Assembly (NCBI GenBank): GCA_034722015.1
Contig: JAYENI010000157.1
Span: forward strand, 11 to 64,010
DNA length: 64,000 bases
Direction: 5' to 3'
Source: Pseudomonadota bacterium
GTDB taxonomy: Bacteria; Pseudomonadota; Gammaproteobacteria; JAJDOJ01
Part shown: in pieces, positions 3,348 to 63,636 of the stretch
Numbering within the stretch: position 1 is the first letter of the stretch
Layout of the letters: each line of letters begins with the position of its first letter
Notes under the pieces: model-generated
The model's database searches: none
What the model was told of the DNA's origin: nothing
The model's input: the letters and a program-made list of their open reading frames with translations, nothing else
Program-made: the position numbers and the translations under genes

Positions 3348-3502
3348 GTGATATTCGCTCCGTTTTCTTGCCGGTTTCGTGGAACCGAACGGCCCGTTCA
3401 ATGCCCCGGGAGTAGCCGATTGACAGGGACGACCCGGCGGGGGCCAGACACCGTCTCCTGTTCCTGTAAACGCAGGAAACTGGAAAAGGGGTTAAGCCGA
3501 TG

Positions 3503-3518
3503 TCTGTCAATCGCCTAA
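3503..3518. repeat. TIR-derived remnant
   Basis: TCTGTCAATCGCCTAA combines the TTTCTGTCAA and CAATCGCCTAA TIR segments. Lies in the VWA/membrane-protein divergent intergenic region. Confidence 0.4.
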
Positions 3519-3673: not shown

Positions 3674-4276
3674 GTGCCGGAGATTATGTTTCGAAGACTC
3701 GCTCTGGGTGGCCTGTTCGGCGGAGTCGTGATGTTCGTATGGGGGGCGGTGTCGTGGCTTACCCTGCCATGGCATCACACCACGTTGCTGAACTTTTCCG
3801 ACGAGGCAGCCGTGGCGGCGATCATCTCCGACAACGCGCAGCAAAGTGGAATGTACCTCCTGCCCAATCCCGGCAAATTTGCGCCGGGCGCCGACGAAGC
3901 GGAGCAGCTACGCTATTTCGACGACGCCGCCGCGCGAATGAAGCAGGGGCCATTCGTGTTTGTCTCAGTCAAGCGGGAGGGGTCGGACCCTGACAATCCG
4001 GCACCGTTCATCCTGTCTCTCGTCACACGGGTCGTCGCGGCACTGCTGATGACGGGTCTGGTGCTGCTGTCCGCACACAATGGTTACTGGCGTCGCGTCG
4101 CTTTCGTGACTGCGTTGGGAGTACTCACGGGACTGATGGCGACGTTTCCCAGCTGGAACTGGTGGAAATTCGATTCGATGTTCACCCTGGTGAATTTCGC
4201 GGACTACGTGATTCAGTTCCTGCTTGCCGGACTGGTCATCGCGGGAATTACGGGCGACCCGCCGGAGTCGGGTTGA
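3674..4276 (+). CDS. hypothetical inner-membrane protein (approximately 4 TM segments)
   Basis: The ORF has several hydrophobic helices. GTG at 3674 or ATG at 3686 are possible starts. The TGA stop abuts repeat copy 1. Confidence 0.45.
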   Translation: MPEIMFRRLALGGLFGGVVMFVWGAVSWLTLPWHHTTLLNFSDEAAVAAIISDNAQQSGMYLLPNPGKFAPGADEAEQLRYFDDAAARMKQGPFVFVSVKREGSDPDNPAPFILSLVTRVVAALLMTGLVLLSAHNGYWRRVAFVTALGVLTGLMATFPSWNWWKFDSMFTLVNFADYVIQFLLAGLVIAGITGDPPESG

Positions 4277-7005: not shown

Positions 7006-7770
7006 ATGCTCGGGAGGCTATTCGGACAAGGTGGGCGGGGCCTGGAGATCCCGGACGAGGCGTGGTCGGCCCTGTCGAGCGCGCTGGCGCCGGTGGCCCG
7101 TTATCCGGCAGGGGACCGCGACCGTCTGCGACATCTCGCCGGACGATTTCTCGCCGACAAAACCATCGAAGGCGCGGGTGGGCTGGAGATCACCCTGCCC
7201 ATGCAGTGGTTCATCGCCACGCAGGCCTGCATCCCGATACTGAATCTCGACCTGGATCTGTACGATGGCTGGTATGCGGTGGTCGTGTATCCGGGAGAAT
7301 TCCACGTCTCCTCCGAGTTCGTCGACGAGGCCGGGGTAGTCCATGAATCCACGCGTTCGCTCGTTGGTGAGTCCTGGGACCGAGGTCCGGTCATACTTTC
7401 CTGGGAACACACCCTGGAGGGAGCGGGCGACCCCTGGGGAGGCAGCAATGTCGTGATCCATGAGTTCGCGCACAAACTGGACATGCTCAACGGGACCGCT
7501 AACGGGATGCCTCCCCTGCATCGGGACATGGACCGCAGCCTATGGACGGCGGTGTTTTCCGCGGCATTCGAGGAATTCGGTCTGCGACTGGATACCGGTG
7601 CGCCCTTGCCCTGCGACGAATACGCAGGGGAATCCCCGGGAGAGTTCTTCGCGGTATTGAGTGAGGTCTTTTTCATGCGGCCCGAGGCAATCCAGGCTTT
7701 TTATCCCCAGGTCTACCGGCTGTTGGGGACGTACTATCGTCAGGACCCGGCGGCCACGGAGTCGGGTTGA
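7006..7770 (+). CDS. mtfA: MtfA/YeeI family zinc peptidase (M90; Mlc titration factor A-like)
   Basis: HExxH motif HEFAHKLD and the typical ~250-aa length. Confidence 0.75.
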   Translation: MLGRLFGQGGRGLEIPDEAWSALSSALAPVARYPAGDRDRLRHLAGRFLADKTIEGAGGLEITLPMQWFIATQACIPILNLDLDLYDGWYAVVVYPGEFHVSSEFVDEAGVVHESTRSLVGESWDRGPVILSWEHTLEGAGDPWGGSNVVIHEFAHKLDMLNGTANGMPPLHRDMDRSLWTAVFSAAFEEFGLRLDTGAPLPCDEYAGESPGEFFAVLSEVFFMRPEAIQAFYPQVYRLLGTYYRQDPAATESG

Positions 7771-7785
7771 TTCCGGCAATCGCCT
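7771..7785. repeat. TIR remnant (right terminus only)
   Basis: TTCCGGCAATCGCCT matches the right TIR 15/15. Fills the 14-bp gap between convergent mtfA and cysQ. Confidence 0.5.
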
Positions 7786-8609
7786 CAGGTGACCGCGTCG
7801 ATTCGTTGCCGCCAGTTGAAGTCCGGATCGCCGAAGACGACGAAGGAGGGATTTGTCAGGGATTCTTTCGTGTTGTAACGCAGACGCTGAAACTGCAGGT
7901 CGGTCATGCGGCCACCTGCCTCCTCCACGATGCACTGGGCCGCGGCCGTGTCCCATTCGGAGGTTGGCCCGAACCGTGGGTAGATGTCCGCCGTGCCTTC
8001 GGCGACCAGGCAGGATTTGATCGCGCTGCCCATGGGAATCAGGTCGTGCGGGCCCAGCACCTGGAGGAAGACACCGAGCTTTCCGGTTGCGTGCGAACGG
8101 CTGCCCGCGACGACGGGATGCGTCGCGGGTGTCGCGCGGGTGGTCACGGCTGAGTCCGGCCCCTCTCCCGGTCGCTTCCACGCTCCGCCGCCGTTTACTG
8201 CGTGCCAGGTGGTTCCGGTGATCGGTGAATGGATGACCCCGACCACTGCGTCGTGTCCGCTGACCAGCGCAATACTCACGCAGAATTCGCCATTGCCCTT
8301 GATAAATTCCCGGGTCCCGTCCAGGGGATCGACGAGCCAGTAGTGGTCCCATACCGATCGGGTAGCGAATGGACACCTGTCGGACTCCTCGGCCAGGACC
8401 GGGAACCCGTGCGCTGTTGCCGTGAGTCGTTCCACGATGATCTGGTTGGCCGCAAGGTCCGCGGTCGTTACCGGTGTCCGGTCGGCCTTTTCACGGACAG
8501 TGTATTCGCCGTTATAGATGCGGTGGATTTCGTTCCCGGCCGCGATTGCGACGCTGATGGCCTGATCGCGCAGTTCGCCGAGTTCGCGGGTTGGTATGGG
8601 AGGGATCAT
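7785..8609 (-). CDS. cysQ: 3'(2'),5'-bisphosphate nucleotidase CysQ
   Basis: Inositol monophosphatase family motifs (WLVDPLDGTREF, metal-binding Asp residues). Confidence 0.8.
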   Translation of the reverse strand: MIPPIPTRELGELRDQAISVAIAAGNEIHRIYNGEYTVREKADRTPVTTADLAANQIIVERLTATAHGFPVLAEESDRCPFATRSVWDHYWLVDPLDGTREFIKGNGEFCVSIALVSGHDAVVGVIHSPITGTTWHAVNGGGAWKRPGEGPDSAVTTRATPATHPVVAGSRSHATGKLGVFLQVLGPHDLIPMGSAIKSCLVAEGTADIYPRFGPTSEWDTAAAQCIVEEAGGRMTDLQFQRLRYNTKESLTNPSFVVFGDPDFNWRQRIDAVT

Positions 8610-10148: not shown

Positions 10149-10805
10149 ATGATGCTGGACTGGACGAAAGTCGCGACGGTGTTCCTCGATATGGACGGCA
10201 CCCTGCTGGACCTCCATTTCGATAACTATTTCTGGCTCGAGCACATCCCGCTGCGTTACGGCGAAAAGCACGGCCTTGAAAGCGCTGAAGCGCGAGAGGC
10301 GCTGATGCGGAAATACCGTTCGGTCGAGGGGACCCTGCAATGGTATTGCATCGACTACTGGAGCGGGGAACTGGAACTTGATATCACCGCGCTCAAACAG
10401 GAGGTGGCACACAAGATCGCAGTGCATCCGCACGCAGAGCGTTTTCTCGCGGCGGTGAGGGGAAGCGGGCGTCGCCTGATGCTGCTGACCAACGCACACG
10501 GAACCAGCGTTGAGATCAAGTTGCGCAAGACCGAACTTGGACGGTATTTCGACCGCCTGATCGTTTCGCACGATCTGGGGGAACCCAAGGAGAGCGCGGC
10601 GTTCTGGCCGTTGCTACGGGAATATGAGCCGTTCGACCCCAAGAGTGCCCTGCTGGTGGACGACAACCTGTCGGTGCTGCGTGCGGCAGCGGGCAGCGGG
10701 ATCGCATGGACGATAGCGGTGAAACGCCCCGATACCACGCTCGGCGAGAAGGACACGGGAGAGTTTCCCGCAATTTCCGATTTCAGCGAAATCCTGCCGG
10801 ACTAA
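10149..10805 (+). CDS. yrfG: HAD-superfamily hydrolase, YrfG-like GMP/IMP nucleotidase
   Basis: HAD motif I FLDMDGTLLD and motif IV LLVDDN. In enterics yrfG neighbours nudE. The TAA stop is the first 3 nt of repeat copy 2. Confidence 0.7.
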   Translation: MMLDWTKVATVFLDMDGTLLDLHFDNYFWLEHIPLRYGEKHGLESAEAREALMRKYRSVEGTLQWYCIDYWSGELELDITALKQEVAHKIAVHPHAERFLAAVRGSGRRLMLLTNAHGTSVEIKLRKTELGRYFDRLIVSHDLGEPKESAAFWPLLREYEPFDPKSALLVDDNLSVLRAAAGSGIAWTIAVKRPDTTLGEKDTGEFPAISDFSEILPD

Positions 10806-12420: not shown

Positions 12421-12592
12421 GCAATCGCCTAAGGCGATTTCTGTCAAATGACATACCATCCTGCTTGTCTTTTCGTCCGTCCTCTGTGTTGCGACAACCG
12501 TGACATCGTTCGACGATGTGCCTGTTGTCGCGCCTTGATGACGAACGAAAATCCGGCGCGATCTGGCATGTTATATTCCGGCAATCGCCTAA
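12421..12592 (+). repeat. MITE-like TIR element, copy 4 (with 9-bp extra TIR fragment GCAATCGCC at left end)
   Basis: GCAATCGCCTAAGGCGATTTCTGTCAAATGACATACC...GGCATGTTATATTCCGGCAATCGCCTAA. The terminal CTA supplies the TAG stop of the minus-strand HTH gene. Confidence 0.85.
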
Positions 12593-13595: not shown

Positions 13596-13609
13596 CGTGT
13601 CTGCCCCTC

Positions 13610-13624
13610 GACAGAAATCGCCTC
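13610..13624. repeat. TIR remnant (left terminus, reverse)
   Basis: GACAGAAATCGCCT lies between the 98-aa and 141-aa genes. Confidence 0.45.
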
Positions 13625-13665
13625 AGGTCCCCCGGGTCATTGCACCGGTCGGGACCGGACCCGCG

Positions 13666-19377: not shown

Positions 19378-19540
19378 TAAGGCGATTTCTGTCAATTGAC
19401 ATACCATCTTGCTTGTCTTTTCGTCCGTCCTCTGTGTTACGACAATAGTTGCATCGTTCGACGATGCGCCTGTTGTCGCGCCTTGATGACGAACGAAAAG
19501 CCGGCGCGATCCGGTATGTCATTTTCCGGCAATCGCCTAA
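19378..19540 (+). repeat. MITE-like TIR element, copy 6
   Basis: TAAGGCGATTTCTGTCAATTGACATACC...GGTATGTCATTTTCCGGCAATCGCCTAA. Confidence 0.85.
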
Positions 19541-20472: not shown

Positions 20473-21507
20473 ATGGACATAACCCAACTACTCGCCTTCT
20501 CCGTCAAGAACAATGCATCGGACCTCCATATCTCGGCCGGTGTGCCGCCGATGATTCGCGTGGACGGGGATGTACGCCGGATCAACGTGCCGGCCATGGA
20601 GCACAAGGAAGTGCACGACATGGTCTATGACATCATGAACGACAAGCAACGCAGGGACTACGAGGAATATCTGGAAACGGACTTCTCGTTCGAGATCCCC
20701 GGGCTGGCGCGATTCAGGGTCAATGCATTTAATCAGAACCGTGGTGCGGGGGTCGTCTTTCGCACCATCCCCACGAAGATCCTGACCCTGGAGGACCTCA
20801 ACTGCCCGAAGATATTCGAGGACATTTCCTCCTACCCCCGAGGTATCGTGCTCGTGACCGGCCCGACGGGTTCGGGAAAGTCCACCACGCTCGCCGCGAT
20901 GATCGACTACAAGAACGACAGCGAATACGGGCATATCCTGACCATCGAGGACCCGATCGAGTTCGTGCACGAAAGCAAGAAATGCCTCGTCAACCAGCGA
21001 GAGGTGCATCGTGACACCCATGGTTTCAACGAGTCGCTCCGGTCCGCCCTGCGCGAGGACCCCGACACGATCCTGGTCGGCGAGCTGCGCGACCTGGAAA
21101 CCATCCGCCTGGCGCTGACCGCGGCCGAAACGGGACACCTGGTCTTCGGTACCCTGCACACCAGTTCAGCGGCAAAGACCATTGACCGCGTGGTCGACGT
21201 ATTTCCCGCGGCCGAGAAATCCATGGTTCGCTCGATGCTTTCCGAGTCGCTGAAAGCCGTCATTTCCCAGACCCTGTGCAAGCGGGTCGGTGGTGGACGG
21301 GTCGCGGCGCACGAGATCATGATCGGTACCCCCGCGATCAGGAACCTGATCCGCGAGGACAAGGTGGCGCAGATGTATTCCGCGATCCAGACCGGGCAGG
21401 CCACCGGGATGCAGACGCTGGACCAGAACCTGAAGGAGCTGATATCCCGTGGCCTGATCAGCCGGGAAGAGGCGCGCCGCAAGGCGGCGCACAAGGAAAC
21501 CTTCTGA
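20473..21507 (+). CDS. pilT: twitching motility ATPase PilT
   Basis: Walker A GPTGSGKST, Asp box, His box, and a PilT-specific C-terminal AIRNLIRE motif. Confidence 0.9.
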   Translation: MDITQLLAFSVKNNASDLHISAGVPPMIRVDGDVRRINVPAMEHKEVHDMVYDIMNDKQRRDYEEYLETDFSFEIPGLARFRVNAFNQNRGAGVVFRTIPTKILTLEDLNCPKIFEDISSYPRGIVLVTGPTGSGKSTTLAAMIDYKNDSEYGHILTIEDPIEFVHESKKCLVNQREVHRDTHGFNESLRSALREDPDTILVGELRDLETIRLALTAAETGHLVFGTLHTSSAAKTIDRVVDVFPAAEKSMVRSMLSESLKAVISQTLCKRVGGGRVAAHEIMIGTPAIRNLIREDKVAQMYSAIQTGQATGMQTLDQNLKELISRGLISREEARRKAAHKETF

Positions 21508-21560
21508 GCGGCACCGGACCCCGTGCCCATCGAATTTGCGTGCAAGCGAGGTAACGAGAT

Positions 21561-22727
21561 ATGGATCGAGACAAGGCAATAGGTTTCATGCACGATCTTC
21601 TCAAGACGCTGATCGGCAGGAACGGTTCGGATATGTTCATCACCGTCGGTGCGCCGCCTTCCATCAAGGTCGATGGAAAGATGACGCCGATTACCAACCA
21701 GGCACTCACGCCGACCCATACCCAGGTCCTGGTGCGCGCGATCATGAACGACAAGCAGGCGCGTGAATTCGACGAGAAGCAGGAGTGTAATTTCGCCATC
21801 AACATGCCCGGCGTCTCGCGCTTCCGCGTCAGTGCGCTCACCCAGCAGGGAAACGCGGGTATGGTGATTCGTGTGATCACCAGCGAGATTCCCGAGTTCG
21901 AGGATCTCAGCCTGCCGAAGATCCTGCGCGACATCGCCATGACCGGGCGTGGCCTGGTGATCTTCGTCGGCGGCACGGGTTCCGGCAAGTCCACTTCCCT
22001 GGCCGCGATGATCGGGTACCGCAACGAGCACAGCTACGGCCACATCATCACCATCGAGGACCCGGTGGAGTATGTGCATCCGCACCGGAACTGCCTGATC
22101 ACCCAGCGGGAGGTTGGCGTCGATACGGAAAGCTACGAGATCGCGCTCAAGAACACCCTGCGACAGGCCCCCGACGTCATTCTGATCGGGGAGATCCGGG
22201 ATCGTGAGACCATGGAGCACGCCGTGGCCTTCGCCGAGACGGGCCACCTCTGCCTTTCCACCCTGCATGCGAACAGCACCAACCAGGCGCTGGACCGGAT
22301 CATCAATTTCTTTCCCGAGGAGCGACGCTCGCAGCTGCTGATGGACCTGTCGCTGAATCTCAAGGCGGTCATCTCGCAGCGCCTGCTTCCGAAGGCCGGC
22401 AGCGAGGGGCGGGTCCCCGCCGTGGAGGTCATGATCAACACGCCGCTGATGTCGGACCTGATCTTCAAGGGCGAAGTGCACGAGATGAAGAGCCTGATCA
22501 AGAAATCCACCGAGCAGGGCATGCAGACCTTCGACCAGCACCTGTTCCAGCTGCTGGAAGAGGGCAAGATCACCTACGAAGACGCCTTGCGCAATGCGGA
22601 CTCGGTCAACGACCTGCGGTTGCGCATCAAGCTCGAGGGGACGTTGTCCAGGCAGGCGGCGCCGGGTGACGCGGCGCTTGGCGGGCTGGAGATGGAGGCC
22701 AAGGCGGAGGAGTCAGGTTTGATCTAG
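21561..22727 (+). CDS. pilU: twitching motility ATPase PilU
   Basis: PilT-family ATPase immediately downstream of pilT. Walker A GGTGSGKST. Has the longer C-terminus typical of PilU. Confidence 0.85.
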   Translation: MDRDKAIGFMHDLLKTLIGRNGSDMFITVGAPPSIKVDGKMTPITNQALTPTHTQVLVRAIMNDKQAREFDEKQECNFAINMPGVSRFRVSALTQQGNAGMVIRVITSEIPEFEDLSLPKILRDIAMTGRGLVIFVGGTGSGKSTSLAAMIGYRNEHSYGHIITIEDPVEYVHPHRNCLITQREVGVDTESYEIALKNTLRQAPDVILIGEIRDRETMEHAVAFAETGHLCLSTLHANSTNQALDRIINFFPEERRSQLLMDLSLNLKAVISQRLLPKAGSEGRVPAVEVMINTPLMSDLIFKGEVHEMKSLIKKSTEQGMQTFDQHLFQLLEEGKITYEDALRNADSVNDLRLRIKLEGTLSRQAAPGDAALGGLEMEAKAEESGLI

Positions 22728-22928
22728 CGGATTTCAATGGTCTGCCGGATGCGCCCGTCTGTCGGCCCGCGGCAGTGGGCATCAGTGAACTTGGGGCTAA
22801 ACCACATACGACCGCAGGTTTGTACCGGAATGCGCACAAGATTGTTGCCGAGGCAGTCACGCGTTACCCGGCGAACTGCCACAAGGGGTGGCGCGAGATG
22901 ACAGGGGCCAGTCCCATTGCGAAGTATC

Positions 22929-23092
22929 TAAGGCGATTACCGGAAAATGACATATCAGATTGCGCCGGATTTTCGTTCGTCATCAAGGCGCGACAACAGG
23001 CACATCGTCGAACGATGGAACGGTTGTCGCAACACAGGAGACGGACGAAAAGACAAACAGGATGGTATGTCAATTGACAGAAATCGCCTAAG
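22929..23092 (-). repeat. MITE-like TIR element, copy 7 (between pilU and the third pilT paralogue)
   Basis: TAAGGCGATTACCGGAAAATGACATATC...GGTATGTCAATTGACAGAAATCGCCTAA. Ends 12 nt before the pilT-paralogue ATG, and the terminal TAAGGA is positioned like an SD. Confidence 0.85.
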
Positions 23093-23104
23093 GAACCCAG
23101 TGCC

Positions 23105-24406
23105 ATGAATATTGCTCCCTATCTCAAACTGATGTCGGACAAGAATGCTTCCGACCTGTTCTTCACGACCGGGGCCCCGGCAAGCGTCAAGCTGGAGGGG
23201 GAGATGCGCCCGGTCAGCCGGAGTGCGCTGGATCCCGGCGTGACGCGGGAGATCGCCTACAGTCTGATGGACGAGGCGCAGATCCACGAGTTCGAGAACA
23301 CCAAGGAGATGAACCTGGGTCTCAGCATCGCCGGAGTGGGCCGATTTCGCGTCAACATTTACCGCCAGCGAGGAGAGGTGTCGCTCGTCATCCGGTTTAT
23401 CAAGTCAATCATCCCCTCGCTGGAGGATCTCTCCCTGCCGCCGGTGCTCAAGGACCTCGTGGGGCACAAGAACGGGTTGATCATCGTGGTTGGTTCGACC
23501 GGCTCCGGCAAGTCCACGACGCTGGCGTCCATGCTCGATTTTCGAAACGCCAACCAGGCGGGCCACATACTGACGATCGAGGACCCGATCGAATATGTGT
23601 TCGCACACAAGAAATCGATCATCGGACAGCGCGAAGTCGGTCTGGACACCCTCTCGTACGACAACGCGCTGCGCGAGGCCATGCGAGAGGCACCGGACCT
23701 GATCATGATCGGGGAGGTGCGTGATCGCAAGACCATGGAGGCGGCAATTTCCTACGCCGACACGGGCCACCTCTGCATGACGACGCTGCACGCCGTCAAC
23801 GCCAATCAGGCGCTCGACAGGGTCATCAACCTGTTTCCGTCGGACGCCAGGCAGCAGATCCTCATGGACCTGTCGCTGAATCTTCGCGGCATCGTCTCAC
23901 AGCGTCTCGTCGTGGGGATGGACGGCAAGCGGGTCCCGGCCGTAGAGGTGCTGGTCAACACCCCCTACAGCTCCGAGCTCATCAAGAAGGGAGAGATAGG
24001 GGCATTGAAAGAGATCATGGAAAAGGGCTCGGTCAACGGCATGCAGACATTCGACCAGTCGCTGCTCGAGCTTTACCAGATGAAACGCATCAATCTCCAG
24101 GCGGCGCTGGGCAATGCGGACTCCAGGGGGGATCTCGAATGGCGTATCAATTTCGGGGGGGGCAAGGACAGCTTCGAGGATTCGGTCGAATCGCTCCAGT
24201 TTCCGGACGACGTCGTCGAGCAGTCGGGCAAGGCGTCGGGTGATGTCGACCCGCACGCGGCGATGGAAAGTGAGGACGATGTGCCCGACCAGGCCATGGA
24301 CACCCTCTCGATGATGCGAAACGCCTTCGGCGAGGAAGATGAAGATGAAGACGAAGACGACGCATCCGAGGAGGGAGACGAAGACAACCTGAATGTCAGA
24401 TCCTGA
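23105..24406 (+). CDS. third PilT/PilU-family retraction ATPase paralogue with acidic C-terminal tail
   Basis: Walker A GSTGSGKST, His box and PilT N-domain are present. Unique ~90-aa C-terminal extension ending EEDEDEDEDDASEEGDEDNLNVRS. Confidence 0.8.
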   Translation: MNIAPYLKLMSDKNASDLFFTTGAPASVKLEGEMRPVSRSALDPGVTREIAYSLMDEAQIHEFENTKEMNLGLSIAGVGRFRVNIYRQRGEVSLVIRFIKSIIPSLEDLSLPPVLKDLVGHKNGLIIVVGSTGSGKSTTLASMLDFRNANQAGHILTIEDPIEYVFAHKKSIIGQREVGLDTLSYDNALREAMREAPDLIMIGEVRDRKTMEAAISYADTGHLCMTTLHAVNANQALDRVINLFPSDARQQILMDLSLNLRGIVSQRLVVGMDGKRVPAVEVLVNTPYSSELIKKGEIGALKEIMEKGSVNGMQTFDQSLLELYQMKRINLQAALGNADSRGDLEWRINFGGGKDSFEDSVESLQFPDDVVEQSGKASGDVDPHAAMESEDDVPDQAMDTLSMMRNAFGEEDEDEDEDDASEEGDEDNLNVRS

Positions 24407-38600: not shown

Positions 38601-41600
38601 GCAGTCCTCTTGAGGCATACCTGCAATCGAGGAAGCAAAAATTCGCTACCGTAGGGGAGCCTGCCTTTGAAACGGTAGAGGCCGTCGCCACAGAAATTGG
38701 CAGGGTGCTGGGCGTACTCAGGGACGCTCCGGCCAACGTTTCCGTCGACGGGGAACTGCGCGCGCGTATCGACACGATGGCCGAGGAGATGATTCGGTCC
38801 GTAGAAGGCGCGGCGGCGCCAGTGGAAGATGCGGCGGTGGCCCTGCCGGAACCCCCGGTTGTGACGGAGTGCGTGATGCCCGCTGCGACGCTTCCGGGAA
38901 CACCGGACATGCCGGGCGAACAGGACCAGGAACTGGCTGAGCTGTTTCTGGAGGAGGCGACCGACGTCATGGAGGTCGGAGACCGTGCCCTGCAGGCGTG
39001 GTCGGAAAATGCCGACGATCGGGAAGCGGTCACCGAACTGCAGCGTCAGCTGCACACACTCAAGGGTGGGGCGCGCATGGTGGGCTACCCGAAGAGTATC
39101 GGTGACCTGAGCCATGCCCTGGAGTCCATGATTGTCGAGGTTGCCGACGGTCGTTTATCGGGCGGTCGGGAAATGTTCGACATGATGCACCGGTCCTTTG
39201 ATCGCATCAGTGACATGCTCGACCACGCACGGCAGGGGCAACCGGTCTATGCAGACGCCGCGCTGATCGCGGAGATTGCCGGTTTGCGAGGAGAAACCGA
39301 ACCCGCCGAAGCGCAGGGTCCATTACCCGATATGCCGGGCGAACAGGACCAGGAACTGGCGGAGTTGTTTCTGGAGGAGGCGACCGACCTCATGGAGGTC
39401 GGGGACCGCGCCCTGCAGGCGTGGTCGGAGAAGACCGATGATCGCGAAGCGGTCACCGAACTGCAGCGTCAACTGCACACGCTCAAGGGCGGGGCGCGCA
39501 TGGTGGGCTACCCGAAGAGCATCGGTGACCTGAGTCATGCCCTGGAGTCCATGATTGTCGAGGTTGCCGAGGGGCGCCTGTCGGGGAATTCCGACATGTT
39601 CGGTTTGTTGCGCCGGGCATTCGACGGCATCAGTGACATGCTCGACCAGGCGAGGCAGGGGAATCCGGTCTACCCGGCCGTCGGGATACTGGAGGAAATC
39701 GCGCGCCTCCGCGGGGAAGAGCCGGTATTCGAACCGGCGCCGGTACAGCAAGGGCCTGAAGTTCAGGAGGCGCCGCCGGTTGCGGGAACGCCAAGGTCTC
39801 CGCAGCCTTCGGCGCCTCAGGAAGTCATTCGCGTCAAGTCGGACCTGCTGGACAATCTGGTAAACAACGCCGGCGAGGTCAATATTTACCACTCGCGGCT
39901 CGAGCAACAGATATCGTCTTTCGGTTTCAATCTCTGGGAGCTCGAACAAACAGTAGAGCGATTGCGAAAGCAACTGCGCCAGATGGATATCGAGACCGAA
40001 ACGCAAATTCTGTATCGCTACGATCAGGATCCGCAAAAGCCAGGACATGAGGCGGATTTTGATCCCCTGGAACTTGACCGATACTCGACCCTGCAGCAGC
40101 TGTCACGATCACTGGGCGAGAGTGTCAATGACCTGATCAGCATCAAGGATATGTTGAGGGACGTCGTCCGAGACTCCGAGACGCTGCTTCTGCAGCAATC
40201 CAGGGTCAGTACGGATCTGCAGGAAGGATTGATGCGGACCCGAATGGTTCAGTTCGCGGGTCTTGCGCCGCGCTTGCGCCGTGTCGCCCGGCAGACCGCG
40301 CACGAACTGGGGAAAAAGGTCGACGTTCATATCATGGGCGAGACCAACGAACTTGACCGGTCCGTCCTGGACAGGATGGTGGCGCCGCTGGAGCACATGA
40401 TCCGGAATTCAATCTCACATGGACTGGAAATCCCGGAGAAACGCAGAAAGGCCGGTAAACCGGAAACCGGTAACGTACGGATCAGTGTTGACCGGGATGG
40501 CGCCGAGATTGTCGTTCGGGTAGCGGATGACGGTGGTGGCATCGACCTGGAGGCCGTGCGTGCCAAGGCATACAAGCAGGGTCTGATTGGTGACAGCGAC
40601 AAGCTGTCCAATCACGATGTCATGCAGCTAATCCTGGAGTCCGGATTCAGCACGGCGGGTGAAGTCACCCAGATCGCGGGACGCGGTGTCGGCATGGATG
40701 TCGTCGTTAGCGAAATCAAGCAGTTGAACGGTACCCTGACCATTGACTCCACACGCGGTGTCGGTACGGTATTCACTGTGCGGCTGCCCTTCACCCTGGC
40801 GATCAACCAGGCCCTGCTGGTTCAGTTGGGTGAAGACGTGTTTGCCGTCCCGCTGACGAGTATCGAGGGTATCGTGAGAATCAGCGCCGAGGACCTCGGT
40901 GATCGGTACGAGCAGGAAGGCGCCATATATGAGTACGCCGGCAATGCCTATGAACTGAAGTATCTAGGGACGGTGCTTGGATTGCATCAACCCGATCTGA
41001 GTGACCCTTCGAGGATGTATCCCGTGCTTCTGGTCAGATCAGGTGATTTCCGGGCCGGTTTGCAGGTGGACGGCCTGATCGGCAACCGCGAGGTCGTCGT
41101 GAAATCGCTTGGTCCCCAGGTCAGCAAGGCCAGGGGGATATCCGGCGCAACGATTCTCGGTGACGGGCGCGTTGTGCTGATTCTCGATGTCGCCGGCCTG
41201 GTACGCGTCGGGGCGGGGGTCAAGTTCGACTATATTTCCGACAGGCCGCCGGTCGTTTCGGAGGTGCAGACGATCATGGTGATCGACGACTCCATCACCA
41301 TTCGCAAGGTTACCTCGCGAATGCTCGAGCGCAATAACTTCGCCGTAATGACGGCGAAAGACGGCGTCGACGCGGTGAGTCAACTGCAGGAGCAGAAGCC
41401 TGATCTCATGCTGATGGATATCGAGATGCCGCGCATGGATGGTTACGAACTTGCGACGCACGTTCGTAACAACCCGGATCTGAAGGATATCCCGATTATC
41501 ATGATCACGTCGCGAACAGGCCAGAAACACAGACAGAGGGCGGAGAACATCGGTGTCAACAAGTATCTGGGCAAACCCTATCAGGAGAGCGACCTGCTTG

Positions 41601-57240: not shown

Positions 57241-57648
57241 ATGGCATCAAGCGACTGGTTCCTGGAAAAATTTCCCTGCCCCTGTTGCGGTTACCTCGTG
57301 TTTGACGCGCAACCGGGAAGCCATGCGCACTGCCCGATTTGCTGCTGGGAGGACGATCTTGCGCAGCTGCGCTTTCCCCTGATGAACGGAAGCGCCAATG
57401 TCGTGTCCCTGGAAACTGCGCAGAGGAACTTCGCCGAGTTCGGCGCATCGGAGCGCAGAAAGCGGGCCATGGGTCGAGAACCTTTCGAAATGGAGCGCAG
57501 AGAGGGTGATTGGCGCCTGCTCGATCCGGTTCAGGACAATATCGAGGAGCCTCGAAGGGGTATCGACTATTCAGACTCGTATCCCGAGGCGAATACCACC
57601 GTACTGTATTACTGGCGAGTGACCTACTGGCGCAGGTTGAACAGCTAA
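57241..57648 (+). CDS. cysteine-rich CPCC-family hypothetical protein
   Basis: FPCPCCGYLVF...CPICCWEDD motif pair. The TAA stop equals the first 3 nt of repeat copy 10. Confidence 0.5.
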   Translation: MASSDWFLEKFPCPCCGYLVFDAQPGSHAHCPICCWEDDLAQLRFPLMNGSANVVSLETAQRNFAEFGASERRKRAMGREPFEMERREGDWRLLDPVQDNIEEPRRGIDYSDSYPEANTTVLYYWRVTYWRRLNS

Positions 57649-58649: not shown

Positions 58650-60968
58650 ATGATCGTCGCTGGCCAGACACGCGGACAAAAACTCGTGATCGACAAATAC
58701 GCCCGATTCCTGATTCGTTGGCGGTACCTCGTTATTGTCGCCACGCTGGCTGTGGTGGCTGTTCTGGCCAGCGGCGGGCGGTTCCTCCAGTTCACAAACG
58801 ATTACCGCGTCTTTTTCGGTGAGAGCAATCCGCAGCTCGAGGCGTTCGAGAACCTGCAGGACAGCTACACCAAGAACGACAATGTCCTGATCATGCTGTT
58901 GCCGTCCGACGGTGACGTCTTCTCGGGCGACACCCTCGAGGCAATCAAGGAACTCACGACCCGCGCCTGGCAGATCCCCTTTTCGATTCGGGTCGATTCC
59001 ATCGCCAATTTCCAGCATACCTCGGCGGACGGGGACGACCTGCTGGTCGAGGATCTCGTCGACGAGGTGGATGGGCTCTCCGATCAAGACCGGGAGACGA
59101 TCCGCGAAATCGCGCTCAGGGAACCGATACTGGTCAACCGCCTGGTCTCCCCCGACAGTCGTGCCGCGGCGGTCAACGTCACCGTCGAGCTGCCGGGGGT
59201 CGATCCGACCAACGAGGTCCCCGAGGTCGTGGCGTACGCGCGCTCGATCGTCGCCGATTTCGAGGCCCGTTACCCCGATATCGCGTTTCACGTCAGCGGT
59301 GTCGTGATGATGAACAACGCCTTCCCCGAGGCGAGCAAGGCCGACATGAGCCTGCTGGTTCCCCTCGCATTCGTGGTGATCGTCGTAAGCCTCGTCCTGT
59401 TCCTTCGCAATATCCCCGCAGCGATAGCCACGGTCATCGTCGTCATCTTATCCATCCTGGCGGCGATGGGGACCACGGGTTGGCTCGGCATCAAGCTCAC
59501 GCCCCCATCCGCCAGCGCTCCGACACTGATTCTCACCCTGGCGGTGGCCGACTGTGTCCATTTCCTGACGACATTCCTTCATTCGATGCGCGCCGGCGCG
59601 CAGCGCCACGACGCCGTTATCGAGAGTCTGCGAGTCAATTTTCATCCGATCTTTCTCACCTCTCTCACCACGATAATCGGTTTCCTGAGCCTGAATTTCA
59701 GTGACTCTCCACCGTTCCATGATCTCGGAAACATCACCGCGATCGGCGTCGCCTACGCCTTCGTACTCAGCGTGTTGTTTCTGCCTGCCTTCGTCGCGGT
59801 GCTTCCGGTCAGGGCGCGACGGGAGCCGGGTCTCGGCGGGGGCATGATGGGCCCACTGGCCGAGTTCGTGATTCGAAGGCGGCGCGCCCTGCTGATCGTG
59901 ATGGGTGTGATTTCCATCGCGTTGATCGCGCAGATCCCCCGCAATGAACTGAACGACGTTTTCGTCGAGTATTTCGATACCTCGATCGATTTCCGCAACG
60001 ATACCGACATGGTCACCGAACACCTGACCGGGCTCTACTTTATCGACTACTCGCTCGACAGCAAGGAGTCCGGCGGCATCAGCCGACCCGAATTCCTCGA
60101 GGCCGTCAAGCGCTTCACATTGTGGTTGCGTTCGCAGCCGGAGGTGATACACGTCAGTGCAATCACGGACATCTTCGAGCGGCTCAACAAGAACATGCAC
60201 GCCGACGACGAGGCGTGGTACCGCCTGCCGGAGCAGCGCGACCTCGCGGCCCAGTACCTGCTGCTGTACGAGATGTCACTGCCCTACGGGTTGGACCTGA
60301 ACAACCAGATCGACGTGGACAAGGCCAGCACGCGCCTGTCGGTCAGCATGCATACGATCTCAACGCGCGGCGTGATCGAATTCGAGTCACGAGCGAAGGA
60401 CTGGATGCAGGCCAACACACCGGATCTTGTCACCCAGGGCGCCAGTCCGACCGTGATGTTTTCCCACATCGGCGCACGGAATATTCGCAGCATGCTGTGG
60501 GGAACCACACTGGCGCTGGTGCTGATCTCACTGGTCCTCATCTTTGCGCTGCGGTCGCTGAAACTCGGGCTGATCAGTCTGGTGCCGAATCTGCTGCCCG
60601 CGGGCATTGCCTTCGGGATCTGGGGGATCTTTGTCGGCGAGATCGGTCTCGCCCTTTCGGTCGTGATGGGGATGACCCTGGGCATCGTGGTGGACGACAC
60701 GGTACATTTCCTCAGCAAGTATCTCAGGGCGAGGAGAGAACGGGGTTGCAACGCGGAGGACGCGGTGCGCTATGCGTTCTCCAGCGTAGGCATTGCGCTG
60801 TGGGTCACGACCGTGGTGCTGGTGGCCGGATTCCTGGTGTTGTCGCTGTCGGCCTTCGAACTCAATGCCGGGATGGGGCTGCTCACCGCCGTGACGATCA
60901 CAATCGCCCTGATCGTGGATTTCCTTCTGTTACCGCCCCTGTTGATGATCTTCAAGGAGGTCGCGTGA
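58650..60968 (+). CDS. RND-superfamily exporter (MMPL/COG1033-type, 12 TM with two large loops)
   Basis: 772 aa with duplicated 6-TM bundles and a sterol-sensing-like/MMPL topology. Confidence 0.7.
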   Translation: MIVAGQTRGQKLVIDKYARFLIRWRYLVIVATLAVVAVLASGGRFLQFTNDYRVFFGESNPQLEAFENLQDSYTKNDNVLIMLLPSDGDVFSGDTLEAIKELTTRAWQIPFSIRVDSIANFQHTSADGDDLLVEDLVDEVDGLSDQDRETIREIALREPILVNRLVSPDSRAAAVNVTVELPGVDPTNEVPEVVAYARSIVADFEARYPDIAFHVSGVVMMNNAFPEASKADMSLLVPLAFVVIVVSLVLFLRNIPAAIATVIVVILSILAAMGTTGWLGIKLTPPSASAPTLILTLAVADCVHFLTTFLHSMRAGAQRHDAVIESLRVNFHPIFLTSLTTIIGFLSLNFSDSPPFHDLGNITAIGVAYAFVLSVLFLPAFVAVLPVRARREPGLGGGMMGPLAEFVIRRRRALLIVMGVISIALIAQIPRNELNDVFVEYFDTSIDFRNDTDMVTEHLTGLYFIDYSLDSKESGGISRPEFLEAVKRFTLWLRSQPEVIHVSAITDIFERLNKNMHADDEAWYRLPEQRDLAAQYLLLYEMSLPYGLDLNNQIDVDKASTRLSVSMHTISTRGVIEFESRAKDWMQANTPDLVTQGASPTVMFSHIGARNIRSMLWGTTLALVLISLVLIFALRSLKLGLISLVPNLLPAGIAFGIWGIFVGEIGLALSVVMGMTLGIVVDDTVHFLSKYLRARRERGCNAEDAVRYAFSSVGIALWVTTVVLVAGFLVLSLSAFELNAGMGLLTAVTITIALIVDFLLLPPLLMIFKEVA

Positions 60969-61744
60969 TGAGACTCGCATGCGTGATGTTGATTCTGATG
61001 TCCCTGCCCGCAATGGCGGAAACCCCGGAAGAGAAGGGGCTCGCCATCGCGGTTGCCGCCGACGAGCGCGACGCGGGTTTCGGCGACTTCACCGCCGACA
61101 TGGTGATGACCCTCAAGAACCGCAAGGGCAAGACCAGCGTCAGGAACCTGAGGGTGAAGACCCTCGAGGTCCAGGGCGACGGGGACAGGAGCCTTTCCGT
61201 TTTCGATCGGCCGAGGGACGTCAAGAACACGGTGATGCTCACCTACGCACACGGACTCGAACCTGACGACCAATGGCTGTACCTGCCCGCGGTCAAGCGG
61301 GTCAAGCGCATCCACTCGAAGAACAAGTCAGGGCCGTTCATGGGCAGCGAGTTCGCCTTCGAGGACCTGGGGTCGCAGGAGGTCGAGAAGTACACCTACA
61401 AGTATCTGCGTGACGAGCCGTGCGCAGACGGGTGGCAGTGTTATGTCGTGGAGCGCTTTCCCGCCTACGAGCATTCCGGCTACACCCGGCAGGTGGGCTG
61501 GATCGACAAGGACGAGTACCGGCCCGTCAAGACCGAGTTCTACGATCGCAAAAACTCCCTGCTCAAGACCCTGGAGATGTCGGGATACCAGGAATACATC
61601 GGTCGCTACTGGCGACCCGACATCATGTCCATGCAGAACCACCAGACGGCGAAGTCCACACTGCTCGAATGGCAGGATTATCAGTTCGGGACCGGGCTTG
61701 GCGACCGGGACTTCAATCCGAACTCCCTGAGCCGGATGCGTTGA
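60968..61744 (+). CDS. LolA-like outer-membrane lipoprotein-sorting family protein (DUF1329-like)
   Basis: Signal peptide MRLACVMLILMSLPAMA. 1-nt overlap with the RND gene. The track ORF 60122..61744 is an upstream read-through in GC-rich DNA. Confidence 0.55.
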   Translation: MRLACVMLILMSLPAMAETPEEKGLAIAVAADERDAGFGDFTADMVMTLKNRKGKTSVRNLRVKTLEVQGDGDRSLSVFDRPRDVKNTVMLTYAHGLEPDDQWLYLPAVKRVKRIHSKNKSGPFMGSEFAFEDLGSQEVEKYTYKYLRDEPCADGWQCYVVERFPAYEHSGYTRQVGWIDKDEYRPVKTEFYDRKNSLLKTLEMSGYQEYIGRYWRPDIMSMQNHQTAKSTLLEWQDYQFGTGLGDRDFNPNSLSRMR

Positions 61745-61875
61745 CCCGCTCCGGGCCGTACACGGGGTGGACCGGGGGCCGCGGAATCCGTTCATGCCCC
61801 GGCGGCACCCGGCCGGTGGCTATGTTTCCCGGGAAGTTCGCGCGCGGAGGCCCGGCGGAGCGACGTCCGCAGTGG

Positions 61876-62038
61876 TAAAGCGATTACCGGAAAATGACAT
61901 ACCAGATTTTGCCGGATTTTCGGTCGTCATCAAGGCGCGACAACAGGCGCATCGTCGATCGATGGAACGGTTGTCGCAACACAAAGGACGGACGAAAAGA
62001 CAAGCAAGATGGTATGTCATTTGACAGAAATCGCCTAA
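61876..62038 (-). repeat. MITE-like TIR element, copy 11
   Basis: TAAAGCGATTACCGGAAAATGACATACC...GGTATGTCATTTGACAGAAATCGCCTAA. Contains in-frame ATGs continuous with the downstream DUF1302-like ORF. Confidence 0.85.
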
Positions 62039-63636
62039 GTCCGGGTCTGTTCAGCGGGATTGCCCTGAAGGACAGGCTGTCTGCGTCACCGTTAGGCGAT
62101 TGCCGGAAAATCGCCTTAGGGCTCCTGTTTGTCCTTGCGCTGTTCATGTCCCCTGCGGCCCGCGCGGGGATGGTCGACGAAGACACCTGGCTGGTGAAAG
62201 CGGGCGACACGGTGGAATCCGTATCGCGCGACTTCTATCCCGACGATCCGCAGATGGCGCTGCGGATGCAGCGCGAACTGGTCACCGGTAATCCGCAGAT
62301 CTTTCTCGACGTCGACGAGCCGTCCAGGCTGAACCCCGGGGACCGTCTGACGATACCGACATTTGCCTCCGGTCGCGCCAAAGAGCTCTTCGAGGCAGGG
62401 CTGCCCGAATCGGAACGGGACACCGACACCCTGGCGCCGGCTGCGCCTGTGGCCGCTTCGGAGGATCCCGACGTGGAGACCGGGGCCGCTGTCCCCTTTA
62501 TCTTCAGCGGCGAATGGTCCGGCAGTATCACGCCGGAGATCCAGTACTTCTGGGAGACCCCGAAGGCCGGTCCCGACTACAGCGTGGATCTCTCCCTGGC
62601 ATTTCAGCCGGAGTATTACCTGAGCTGGAAGAATGGCAATCAGGCGTTCAACTTCGTGCCGTTCTTCCGGATCGACCAGCGCGATTCCAACCGGACGCAC
62701 TTCGACGTTCGTGAACTCAGCTGGCTTGCGGTCAGTGGCGACTTCGAGTTCCTGTTCGGGGTCAGCAAGGTCTTCTGGGGGGTGACCGAGTTCGTCCACC
62801 TGGTGGATATCATCAACCAGACCGATGCGGTCGAGAACATCGACGGGGAGGAAAAGCTCGGCCAGCCCATGGCCCGGCTGATCTGGCTGCAGGACTGGGG
62901 ATCGCTTCAATTTTTCGTGCTGCCCTATTTTCGCGAGCGGACCTTCCCGGGGCCGGATGCGAGGCTGCGTACGGTGATACCCGTCGATACCGGCCAGACG
63001 CAGTTCGAGTCGGGGGCGAAGAACTGGCACGTGGATTTCGCCGTCCGCGGTACGACCATTCTGGGTCCGGTCGATGCCGCCCTGTCGCAGTTCGTCGGGA
63101 CCAGCCGCGATCCCGAATTTCTCCCCGGAGCGAACGCTGCCGGCCAGCCCGTGCTGATCCCGCGTTACAACCAGATGGCGCAGACAGGGCTGGAACTCCA
63201 GTCCATCCTCGGTGACTGGTTGTGGAAGTTCGAGGGGATCTACCAGAACAATCCGGTGGAGGATTTTTTCGCGGCCGTTGGGGGGTTCGAATACACGCTG
63301 GTCGGCATCTTCAGTTCCGCGATCGATCTCGGCATCGTCAGTGAGTACACTTACGATGGCCGCACGGAACGTCTCGTCTCGCCCTTCGACAACGATGTGT
63401 TTGTCGGAATGCGCCTGGCCTTCAACGACACGCAGAGTACGGAGATCCTGGCCGGCGGGTCCATCGACCTGACAACGGTCGCACGCACCTTCCGGGTTGA
63501 GGCCAGCCGGCGGTTCGGAGACAGCTGGAAGCTCGATCTCGAACTGCAGATCTTCGACAACGTCAGCGAGAAAGACCCGCTTTTCGGTCTGCAGGACGAC
63601 GATTTCGTGCGTCTGGATTTCGGCTATTTCTTCTGA
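62011..63636 (+). CDS. putative outer-membrane beta-barrel protein (DUF1302-like) with LysM-like N-domain
   Basis: Hydrophobic signal-like segment IALGLLFVLALFMSPAARA, then WLVKAGDTVESVSRDFY (LysM-like), then alternating aromatic beta-strand pattern and C-terminal FGYFF. The start is uncertain: the only in-frame ATGs upstream of the hydrophobic segment (62011, 61894) lie inside repeat copy 11. Confidence 0.5.
   Translation, partial: GMSFDRNRLSPGLFSGIALKDRLSASPLGDCRKIALGLLFVLALFMSPAARAGMVDEDTWLVKAGDTVESVSRDFYPDDPQMALRMQRELVTGNPQIFLDVDEPSRLNPGDRLTIPTFASGRAKELFEAGLPESERDTDTLAPAAPVAASEDPDVETGAAVPFIFSGEWSGSITPEIQYFWETPKAGPDYSVDLSLAFQPEYYLSWKNGNQAFNFVPFFRIDQRDSNRTHFDVRELSWLAVSGDFEFLFGVSKVFWGVTEFVHLVDIINQTDAVENIDGEEKLGQPMARLIWLQDWGSLQFFVLPYFRERTFPGPDARLRTVIPVDTGQTQFESGAKNWHVDFAVRGTTILGPVDAALSQFVGTSRDPEFLPGANAAGQPVLIPRYNQMAQTGLELQSILGDWLWKFEGIYQNNPVEDFFAAVGGFEYTLVGIFSSAIDLGIVSEYTYDGRTERLVSPFDNDVFVGMRLAFNDTQSTEILAGGSIDLTTVARTFRVEASRRFGDSWKLDLELQIFDNVSEKDPLFGLQDDDFVRLDFGYFF
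62092..62118. repeat. 27-bp TIR-only mini-copy (abutted termini, no internal region)
   Basis: TTAGGCGATTGCCGGAAAATCGCCTTA, i.e. left TIR fused to right TIR. It lies 53 bp after copy 11 and inside the 5' region of the DUF1302-like ORF. Confidence 0.6.

Follow-up and report, generated by a model that had tools for sequence, protein, structure and literature searches.

A miniature inverted-repeat element in front of, and an in-frame element remnant within, the signal-peptide region of an outer-membrane barrel gene in a gammaproteobacterial operon

Genes of the locus

We have analyzed a 64,000-nt stretch of DNA from a Pseudomonadota bacterium (assembly GCA_034722015.1, contig JAYENI010000157.1), further referred to as the window, and concentrate here on the 5′ end of a gene that is predicted to encode an outer-membrane β-barrel protein and follows the genes of an RND transporter and a LolA-like periplasmic protein in one operon. 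A full copy of a miniature inverted-repeat transposable element (MITE), denoted copy 11, lies at the front of this barrel gene, and an end-only mini-copy of the same element is found within its signal-peptide region; both had been recognized in an earlier note made from the sequence. The coding part of the locus comprises the following features.

58650–60968, + strand: RND transporter of the HAE3/MMPL type, first gene of the operon
60968–61744, + strand: LolA-like (TP_0789-like) periplasmic protein, second gene of the operon (Pfam PF17131, E 2.6e-62)
61745–61835, + strand: intergenic spacer, fast-evolving and non-coding-like, with GC content of about 0.7–0.77 at all three codon positions
62110–62166, + strand: signal-peptide core IALGLLFVLALFM and c-region SPAARA of the barrel protein, with predicted cleavage ARA↓G before codon 62167
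62167–63636, + strand: mature barrel protein, with a predicted beta-alpha-alpha-beta domain, a linker and an AlgE/OprD-like barrel ending in ...DFGYFF

The order RND / LolA-like / barrel is conserved in the related contigs L066, L067, L068, L070, L071 and L073, and the LolA-like protein of the window is 100% identical to protein P0121. The barrel family, for which no Pfam or NCBIfam model exists, is large (5547 homologues of the barrel protein), and its members always occur in a three-gene operon, together with an RND pump of the HAE3/MMPL type and a LolA-like (TP_0789-like) protein; some of them bear SPOR or AMIN N-terminal domains.

The barrel protein had earlier been called DUF1302-like, a label that the searches do not bear out: it has no Pfam match even at E≤10 and no NCBIfam match, and a profile search of the PDB sequences found nothing. 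The AlphaFold2 model (mean pLDDT, the predicted local distance difference test score, of 80) opens with a helix, followed by a small beta-alpha-alpha-beta domain and a large barrel of approximately 18–20 strands, the latter matched by Foldseek to AlgE, OccK and OprD with E about 1e-9 (template-modelling score about 0.45–0.55 for AlgE and OccK). As judged by this model, the protein is an outer-membrane β-barrel of the AlgE/OprD-like fold, from a family without a model of its own.

Read by eye, the putative signal peptide consists of an n-region with CRK, the length of which depends on the start used, the core IALGLLFVLALFM at 62110–62148 (rather than a hydrophobic segment at 62113–62150, as previously given) and SPAARA↓G, and aligns with the signal peptides of P0002–P0004, L066 and L071. 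All full-length orthologues carry a signal peptide, with presequences of 22–36 aa, and this, together with the AlgE/OprD-like barrel model, indicates that the barrel protein needs one. A scan of genome contigs with the barrel protein yields only relatives of ≤50% identity, which are of no use for placing the start, and a protein search with the N-terminal 209 aa gives nothing above threshold, partial products from contig ends being apparently outside the collection. Protein P0001 is 96% identical to the barrel protein but comes from a contig that breaks off inside the gene; alone it lacks the 5′ end, and it turned out to abut contig L071 (see below).

The MITE family in the window

The family has been defined by repeat finding and alignment (alignment A1), with the exact element ends placed by script. 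The window contains 11 full copies identified via repeat search and alignment, ten of them 157 bp and one (copy 3) 156 bp long, as well as several terminal fragments. The 12-mer GGTATGTCATTT occurs 18 times in the 64-kb window versus 0.08 occurrences expected, and the left-end 18-mer, 12 times versus none expected, these twelve being the 11 full copies and the mini-copy. The element has the termini GGCGATTGCCGGAAAATGACATACC ... GGTATGTCATTTGACAGAAATCGCC, which form inverted repeats of 25 nt with a 7-nt internal mismatch. Nine of the 11 copies are flanked by a perfect 3-bp target duplication of the TNA type (TTA in five cases, TAA in three and TGA in one), while in the other two the duplication is imperfect.

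Translations of the consensus contain no domain-sized open reading frame (ORF), and hence no transposase ORF, the copies being only 156–157 bp long, and no longer element sharing the same ends, that is, no candidate autonomous insertion sequence, is present in the 64-kb window. A search of Rfam produced nothing comparable, its lone sub-threshold match to a plant miRNA hairpin being taken as spurious. With its small size, inverted repeats, target duplications, dispersed copies and the empty site observed for the mini-copy (see below), the element belongs to the class of bacterial MITEs. Insertion into TNA targets is a preference of the IS1031 group. The 3-bp TNA duplication points to a parent of the IS5 / PIF-Harbinger type, 3-bp duplications being canonical for Harbinger, a relative of the IS5 family (PMC12730594).

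Frame 0 of the consensus is open in either orientation, and each inverted repeat contains an outward-reading ATG. Frame 2 has one stop codon, TGA, 8 nt beyond the right-hand ATG, and this single-stop frame is seen in six of the 11 copies. Copy 11 is the sole copy in the window with MITE-borne ATGs that are candidate in-frame starts of a neighbouring gene. The gene proC keeps its ATG 19287, 94 nt from copy 6, and a PilT/U-like gene keeps its own ATG 23105, 14 nt from the duplication of copy 7; the TAA of the latter duplication belongs to a TAAGGA Shine-Dalgarno-like motif upstream of this ATG. An exact-sequence look-up of the PilT/U-like protein finds no record.

Several copies adjoin the last codon of an ORF (at 4274–4276, 10803–10805, 19378–19380, 57646–57648 and at other flanks), and there the duplication regenerates the stop codon, because the target is TNA. 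For example, at copy 1 it regenerates the TGA of the ORF 3674–4276, although some such ORFs may be spurious, since the gene calls are crude.

Among the terminal fragments are an inverted 14-nt left end at 7772–7785 (within 7758–7790), the right-end piece CGACAGAAATCGCC at 13609–13622 (within 13608–13625) and a 9-nt left-end fragment adjoining copy 4 (12424–12433). The identical 14-nt flank CGGAGTCGGGTTGA precedes both copy 1 (4263–4276) and the inverted left-end fragment (7758–7771), and may result from a rearrangement between copies or from a duplicated gene end.

Copy 11 and candidate starts of the barrel gene

The target of copy 11 is the TAA of ...GCA GTG G-TAA-GTC CGG..., which places the element upstream of the part of the barrel gene that encodes the signal peptide. 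In RNA, it is predicted to form a near-perfect hairpin of –67.2 kcal/mol (z = –4.85 for the region, compared to shuffled sequences). The features between the spacer and the signal-peptide core, all on the + strand, are listed below.

61836–61878: conserved block with GGAGG (61846–50), GGAG (61857–60), GTG (61872–74; candidate displaced start) and the left TAA (61876–78)
61872–62024: leader ORF of 50 codons, from GTG 61872 through frame 2 of the element to TGA 62022–24
61876–78 and 62036–38: TAA target duplication of copy 11, 3 bp
61879–62035: MITE copy 11, 157 bp, with inverted repeats at 61879–61903 and 62011–62035
61894 and 62014: repeat-borne ATGs of copy 11, the right one at 62014–62016
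62021–26: TTGACA hexamer of copy 11, within its right inverted repeat
62022–24: TGA stop of the leader ORF, within copy 11
62059–62061: ATT, native or near-cognate start candidate, ATG in the closest relative (L071, 2989–91)
62068–62079: AAGGA (62068–72), then 4 nt, then in-frame CTG (62077–79), an alternative near-cognate start
62092–62118: mini-copy, TTA-GGCGATTGCCGGAAAATCGCC-TTA

The ORF 61894–63636 is open throughout, in line with the previous observation of a frame open back to ATG 61894. Its in-frame canonical starts are ATG 61894, TTG 61909, ATG 62014, ATG 62146 and ATG 62170; position 62011, earlier assigned to the second of the repeat-borne ATGs, is the start of the 12-mer motif. It had also been pointed out that no start codon is located just ahead of the hydrophobic segment, and indeed there is no in-frame ATG, GTG or TTG between 62017 and 62145. 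Initiation at ATG 62146 or ATG 62170, inside and after the hydrophobic core, respectively, would yield a product without a signal peptide.

The candidates upstream of the core differ in their predicted accessibility in RNA. The opening cost is 0.7 kcal/mol for GTG 61872, an accessible codon, and 0.0 kcal/mol for ATT 62059, which is fully unpaired, compared to 8.0 kcal/mol for ATG 61894 and 10.0 kcal/mol for ATG 62014, both of which are in the stem. The AAGGA preceding CTG 62077 forms an anti-Shine-Dalgarno duplex of –5.7 kcal/mol; this CTG is CGG in L071 and corresponds in position to TTG 2932, a start candidate of L066. GTG 61767 and ATG 61794 were also considered as starts and are disfavoured, as the region 61745–61871 looks non-coding by codon-position GC content; the range between GTG 61872 and 62059 is too short for the same statistic to separate these two.

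The consensus scan of the + strand from 61500 to 62400 reveals no sigma-70-like promoter, just the –35 hexamer TTGACA being present, and no + strand terminator around copy 11, consistent with read-through transcription of the operon. Promoter activity of the repeat, suggested in the earlier note, thus gains no support from the scan. A mobile promoter comprising the perfect –35 hexamer at 62021–26 and a –10 box in the flank would start the transcript downstream of ATG 62014. Such a role would agree with the fact that all copies have TTGACA in their right inverted repeat, and with the outward promoters on record for MITEAba12 (PMC6382973) and, as cited in the same paper, for Correia elements. 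Still, the sequences 17 nt past the hexamer (GGGTCT/TCTGTT) would be a poor –10 box, the conserved operon would be read through regardless, and the start-codon problem would stay unsolved, making this explanation very improbable.

The scar within the signal peptide

The mini-copy, whose exact arrangement is unique in the window, has a core (62095–62115) that is a 21-bp fusion of element positions 1–17 and 154–157, with the junction at AAAT, a tetranucleotide present in both ends of the element, and it is bordered by the duplicated TTA at 62092–94 and 62116–18. The net insertion of 24 bp adds eight in-frame codons (GDCRKIAL) inside the signal peptide, changing ...SASPL-GLLFVLALF... to ...SASPL-GDCRKIAL-GLLFVLALF.... 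The native signal peptide, earlier suspected to be disrupted, is therefore extended in frame. The closest relative, L071, has a precise empty site here (CCA ATA GGG), so this insertion is specific to the window lineage.

In its form, the mini-copy matches what nearly precise excision leaves behind, with both termini fused at a short direct repeat and the target duplication kept. A second scar, GGCGATTGACAGACATCGGC, is a 20-bp end-to-end fusion on the minus strand (3496–3515, with flanks 3493–3518), joined at TTG and having TAA on both sides. In the signal peptide, a second copy of the MITE landed at a TTA codon in the window lineage, later than copy 11, and would then have been cut down by a deletion between the AAAT microhomologies of its two ends. 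The full 160-bp insertion would have shifted the frame, which the 24-bp product restores, and this in-frame size suggests that selection for function acted in the window lineage.

Relatives and the shared insertion

Relatives were reached by searching with the LolA-like protein. Those closest to the window are listed here.

L071 (JGI 3300010430): sister lineage, LolA-like protein 94% identical
L070 and L072 (Logan SRR35653058/9): sister lineage
L074 (Logan SRR26901932): same sequence as the window, with the contig breaking off inside the MITE

The end of L071 coincides with the first 9 nt of L065, a contig of the same sample that holds a 96%-identical fragment of the barrel gene; jointly, via this 9-nt overlap, L071 and L065 give the whole barrel gene of a relative diverged from the window by dS of 0.18–0.31, and the gene is intact. 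L071 and L070 carry the MITE at the identical junction, and their element is closest to copy 11 (95.8%), sharing with it four bases that are derived relative to the family consensus. The same element at the same site with shared derived bases means that the insertion of copy 11 predates the split of the window and L071 lineages. The more distant L066 and L073 (85%) and L067–L069 (about 55%) have no MITE; an empty-site allele of copy 11 was not found, the MITE-free L066 and L073 being unalignable in this region.

In the sister lineage, 16 nt corresponding to 61877–61892 of the window are deleted at the left junction of the MITE, leaving a 144-bp in-frame insertion. This deletion restores the GTG frame, and in L071 one uninterrupted ORF begins ahead of the MITE, crosses it and continues into the gene. 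Moreover, L071 has an ATG (2989–91) 20 nt past the repeat, from which MTLKDRRSASPIGLLLVLALFMSPAARA↓G, a typical 28-aa signal peptide, would be translated. An orthologue with a conventional ATG and signal peptide at this position and no repeat had been named as the case against a repeat-borne start; L071 provides the ATG and the signal peptide and lacks the mini-copy, but still carries the MITE.

In the MITE-free relatives the intergenic gap ranges from an overlap with the stop codon of the LolA-like gene to approximately 80 nt, and the starts are TTG, GTG or ATG. In L066 (2896–2899) and L073 (2913–2916) a TTG in the barrel frame overlaps the LolA-like stop (cgTTGAtt). The overlap in these MITE-free contigs suggests that translational coupling is the ancestral arrangement of the RND / LolA-like / barrel operon.

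The short-read contigs of the relatives end 99–193 nt past the LolA-like stop, those of L070 and L074 inside copy 11 and that of L072 about 30 nt short of the MITE, while L070 starts within a few nucleotides of the boundary of copy 10. The MITE appears to fragment assemblies and to hide the 5′ ends of genes.

Selection on the gene and uneven conservation of its front

The barrel gene of the window has dN/dS of 0.093 relative to L065 (at dS 0.24) and of 0.12 relative to L066, the same as the two upstream genes of the operon. With L066 as the outgroup, 27 synonymous and 9 non-synonymous substitutions fall on the window branch, and 16 and 6, respectively, on the sister branch, so there is no relaxation of selection in the window lineage. 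The probability that a neutrally evolving 1.46-kb ORF would remain stop-free is about 0.007 at d = 0.12. Thus, purifying selection has continued to act on the gene in the presence of the MITE. Impairment by the insertion, one of the two outcomes considered in the earlier note, is rejected for most of the history of the gene, because all measured divergence postdates the insertion of the MITE, and the gene is intact in both lineages that carry it.

Impairment could have come about only through a loss of very recent date on the window branch. The gene would then be a young pseudogene whose start was lost by the change of ATG to ATT at 62059 and which is intact only because the loss is recent. 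In accordance with this, none of the canonical starts ahead of the signal peptide is both accessible and preceded by a ribosome-binding site. Furthermore, the protein collection lacks the barrel protein, for which an exact-sequence look-up of the form read from ATG 62170 also finds no record, but it contains the LolA-like protein of the same contig, which suggests that the depositor's pipeline made no normal call of a coding sequence. Yet the window branch has no excess of non-synonymous changes, the 1.46-kb ORF is intact through the conserved C-terminal FGYFF, the scar of 24 bp is in frame, which suggests selection within the window lineage, and the in-frame ATG 62014 is still available. On balance, we regard a young pseudogene as improbable.

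The divergence between the window and L071 is distributed unevenly along the front of the gene.

Spacer, 61745–61835: 21 differences in 91 positions, 77% identity
Conserved block, 61836–61878: 0 differences in 41 aligned positions, 100% identity
MITE: 6 differences in 143 positions (3 per lineage), 95.8% identity
62036–62094: 6 differences in 55 positions, 89% identity
Signal-peptide region: 4 differences in 51 positions, 92% identity

Both the block (p = 2e-4, Fisher's test) and the MITE (p = 3e-5) are conserved beyond the spacer, as well as beyond the coding regions, and together they evolve at about one-fifth of the rate of the adjacent spacer. No second occurrence of the block is seen in the window.

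Initiation of translation

Our favoured reading, which we put forward tentatively and which is based on the arrangement of sequence signals, is that translation starts at the native GTG 61872, proceeds through the leader ORF and restarts at the MITE-borne AUG 62014. The original start would have been GTG 61872, with the GGAG of the conserved 41-nt block as its ribosome-binding site. When both insertions are removed, the sequence reads ...GGAG-N11-GTG GTA AGT CCG ... and encodes MVSPGLFSGIALKDRLSASPLGLLFVLALFMSPAARA↓G, a 37-aa presequence similar in length to the orthologous ones (31–36 aa). The 160-bp insertion of copy 11 would have shifted the frame, so that GTG 61872 now opens the 50-codon leader ORF. 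Ribosomes translating the leader would melt the MITE hairpin, terminate at UGA 62022–24 and restart at AUG 62014 in the right inverted repeat, located in the gene frame with its A 8 nt upstream of the stop. With an opening cost of 10 kcal/mol, ATG 62014 would need such help from upstream translation. The product would have a 51-aa presequence cleaved at ARA↓G, which would leave the mature barrel protein unchanged. In the sister lineage, the 16-bp deletion would have placed the GTG directly in frame, with an ATG also at the position of ATT 62059.

Conservation of the block and of the MITE would be expected if the ribosome-binding site, the GTG and the hairpin are all in use, and it is this conservation pattern, together with the frame-restoring deletion in the sister lineage, that leads us to favour GTG 61872 and ATG 62014. 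The suggestion that the element supplies the start may therefore hold for the window, where ATG 62014 is the favoured candidate, whereas in L071 an ATG is available past the repeat.

Termination-reinitiation coupling is possible on the basis of geometry, as the leader stop is situated just past the structure-occluded AUG 62014. A more far-reaching reading, which we consider unlikely, is that copy 11 has been co-opted into the translation initiation region, the strictly conserved ribosome-binding site and GTG opening a leader whose translation melts the hairpin and hands ribosomes over to the AUG of the inverted repeat, with the slow evolution reflecting selection. In this reading the family consensus, with an outward AUG in both inverted repeats, frame 0 open either way and a UGA in frame 2, 8 nt after the right-hand AUG, looks pre-adapted to keep downstream genes of an operon expressed.

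A number of observations weigh against initiation at GTG 61872 followed by restart at ATG 62014. The latter has no Shine-Dalgarno sequence (–4.2 kcal/mol) and lies inside the 25-bp stem; the spacing of 11 nt between GGAG and GTG 61872 is long; and the presequence of 51 aa exceeds that of every orthologue (22–36 aa). The 16-bp deletion would restore the frame by coincidence with a chance of one in three. A recent recombination tract (61836–62042), instead of constraint, could also account for how little the block and the MITE have diverged. The ATG of L071 at the position of ATT 62059 fits a native start downstream of the MITE equally well, and, since L066 and L073 are unalignable here, the ATT/ATG change is unpolarised.

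The native start may indeed have been downstream of the MITE, at 62059, which is the main alternative and somewhat less likely than the favoured reading. In this case copy 11 would lie in an untranslated leader and would never have been disruptive, while the window would use AUU 62059 or CUG 62077, producing a signal peptide of 36 or 30 aa with lowered efficiency. This agrees with the 28-aa signal peptide read from the in-frame ATG of L071, with the fully unpaired state of ATT 62059, with the AAGGA 4 nt ahead of CTG 62077 and the matching position of TTG 2932 in L066, and with non-ATG or ambiguous starts being common among the orthologous genes. On the other hand, in the bacteria that have been studied, initiation at AUU or CUG is very weak, and neither lineage has a Shine-Dalgarno sequence ahead of 62059, where three differences are found in 20 nt, compared to the invariant block ahead of GTG 61872. 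CTG 62077 is replaced by CGG in L071, and the slow evolution of the block and the MITE would be left unexplained.

Finally, the leader and the gene could be joined by a +1 frameshift at AUU-UGA-C (62019–62025) into the gene frame (UUU GAC AGA...), yielding a single fusion protein. The leader stop is set in a slippery NUU-UGA-C sequence that resembles CUU-UGA-C of prfB, the gene frame is the +1 frame, and L071 encodes an equivalent continuous ORF. However, the P-site codon is AUU and not CUU, the presequence would reach about 90 aa, and the Shine-Dalgarno-like stimulator that prfB has 3 nt upstream is absent. The idea being purely sequence-based, we find it hardly credible.

Comparison with known elements

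The feature is of a kind already known, namely, bacterial MITEs, whose inverted-repeat ATGs can form the first codons of adjacent genes. In Acinetobacter, the start codons in the inverted repeats of MITEAba12 form the first residues, MQQS, of adjacent coding sequences (PMC6382973). Like MITEAba12, the window element is short and non-autonomous, with inverted repeats, target duplications and outward start codons; it differs in length (157 versus 113 bp), in the hairpin energy (–67 versus about –25 kcal/mol) and in its frame 0, which is open whichever way it is read, in contrast to MITEAba12, where stops interrupt each of the six frames. Moreover, no promoter was detected in the window copy, and copy 11 is orthologously conserved and slow-evolving. 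The target duplication of MITEAba12 is 9 bp, compared to the 3-bp TNA duplication observed here.

The Correia (NEMIS) elements of Neisseria are abundant intergenic MITEs of approximately 100–160 bp that are co-transcribed with genes, form long hairpins and can alter downstream expression; they have a TA duplication, defined –35/–10 boxes and an IHF site. The window element has a TNA duplication (including TGA), no promoter in the scan, and no sequence similarity or Rfam match to them, which rules out identity with the Correia family.

Nearly precise excision, reportedly described for Tn10 by Ross, Swan and Kleckner in 1979 and by Foster et al. in 1981 (both listed among the references of bioRxiv 10.1101/2023.06.07.543989), proceeds by deletion between short repeats inside the inverted ends and leaves a remnant of both termini within the target duplication. 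The mini-copy, in which 17 nt of the left end and 4 nt of the right end meet at AAAT, and the second scar at 3496–3515, fused at TTG, are similar to such remnants. The mini-copy differs from the Tn10 case in its size (21 bp versus about 50 bp) and in its origin from a MITE, and the excision itself is deduced from its product; being in frame (24 bp) in a signal peptide, it would restore the gene instead of merely relieving polarity.

Rickettsia palindromic elements contribute translated sequence to a host protein that stays functional. The full MITE (157+3 bp), in contrast, cannot insert in frame, and only the 21-bp remnant would be translated, within the signal peptide, so that its residues would be removed from the mature barrel protein. 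The relation between the leader stop (62022–24) and AUG 62014–16, which has no accessible ribosome-binding site, resembles termination-reinitiation in operons. Unlike in usual coupling, the upstream ORF would be an accidental MITE-encoded leader created by the insertion, and what is seen here is the geometry in the sequence. The unusual details are thus a slow-evolving orthologous copy, an in-frame scar inside the signal peptide and the geometry of the leader ORF.

Consequences for annotation and operon function

The barrel gene has been mishandled by automated annotation: the JGI caller began the gene of the relative after the signal-peptide cleavage site, and the window protein is missing from the protein collection. 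As this widespread barrel of the RND / LolA-like export operon has no family model, it will probably be called wrongly, or labelled a pseudogene, near such repeats.

The locus illustrates clearly, in a natural setting, how a gene has withstood two transposon insertions within its first 40 codons, the upstream one tolerated or co-opted, and the other reduced to an 8-codon in-frame scar in a cleavable signal peptide. If the coupling via AUG 62014 is true, it would demonstrate a way for a MITE within an operon to do no harm or even to be of use, and would explain why copy 11 evolves more slowly than the surrounding spacer.

Other repeats in the window

Two direct repeats of 300 nt each, with 88% identity and 423 nt apart, are located at 38902–39624 and probably represent a duplication internal to a gene. 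The region 20839–23907 contains three stretches related to each other (repeat families D6, D7 and D10), which point to paralogues of PilT/PilU-type ATPases in tandem.

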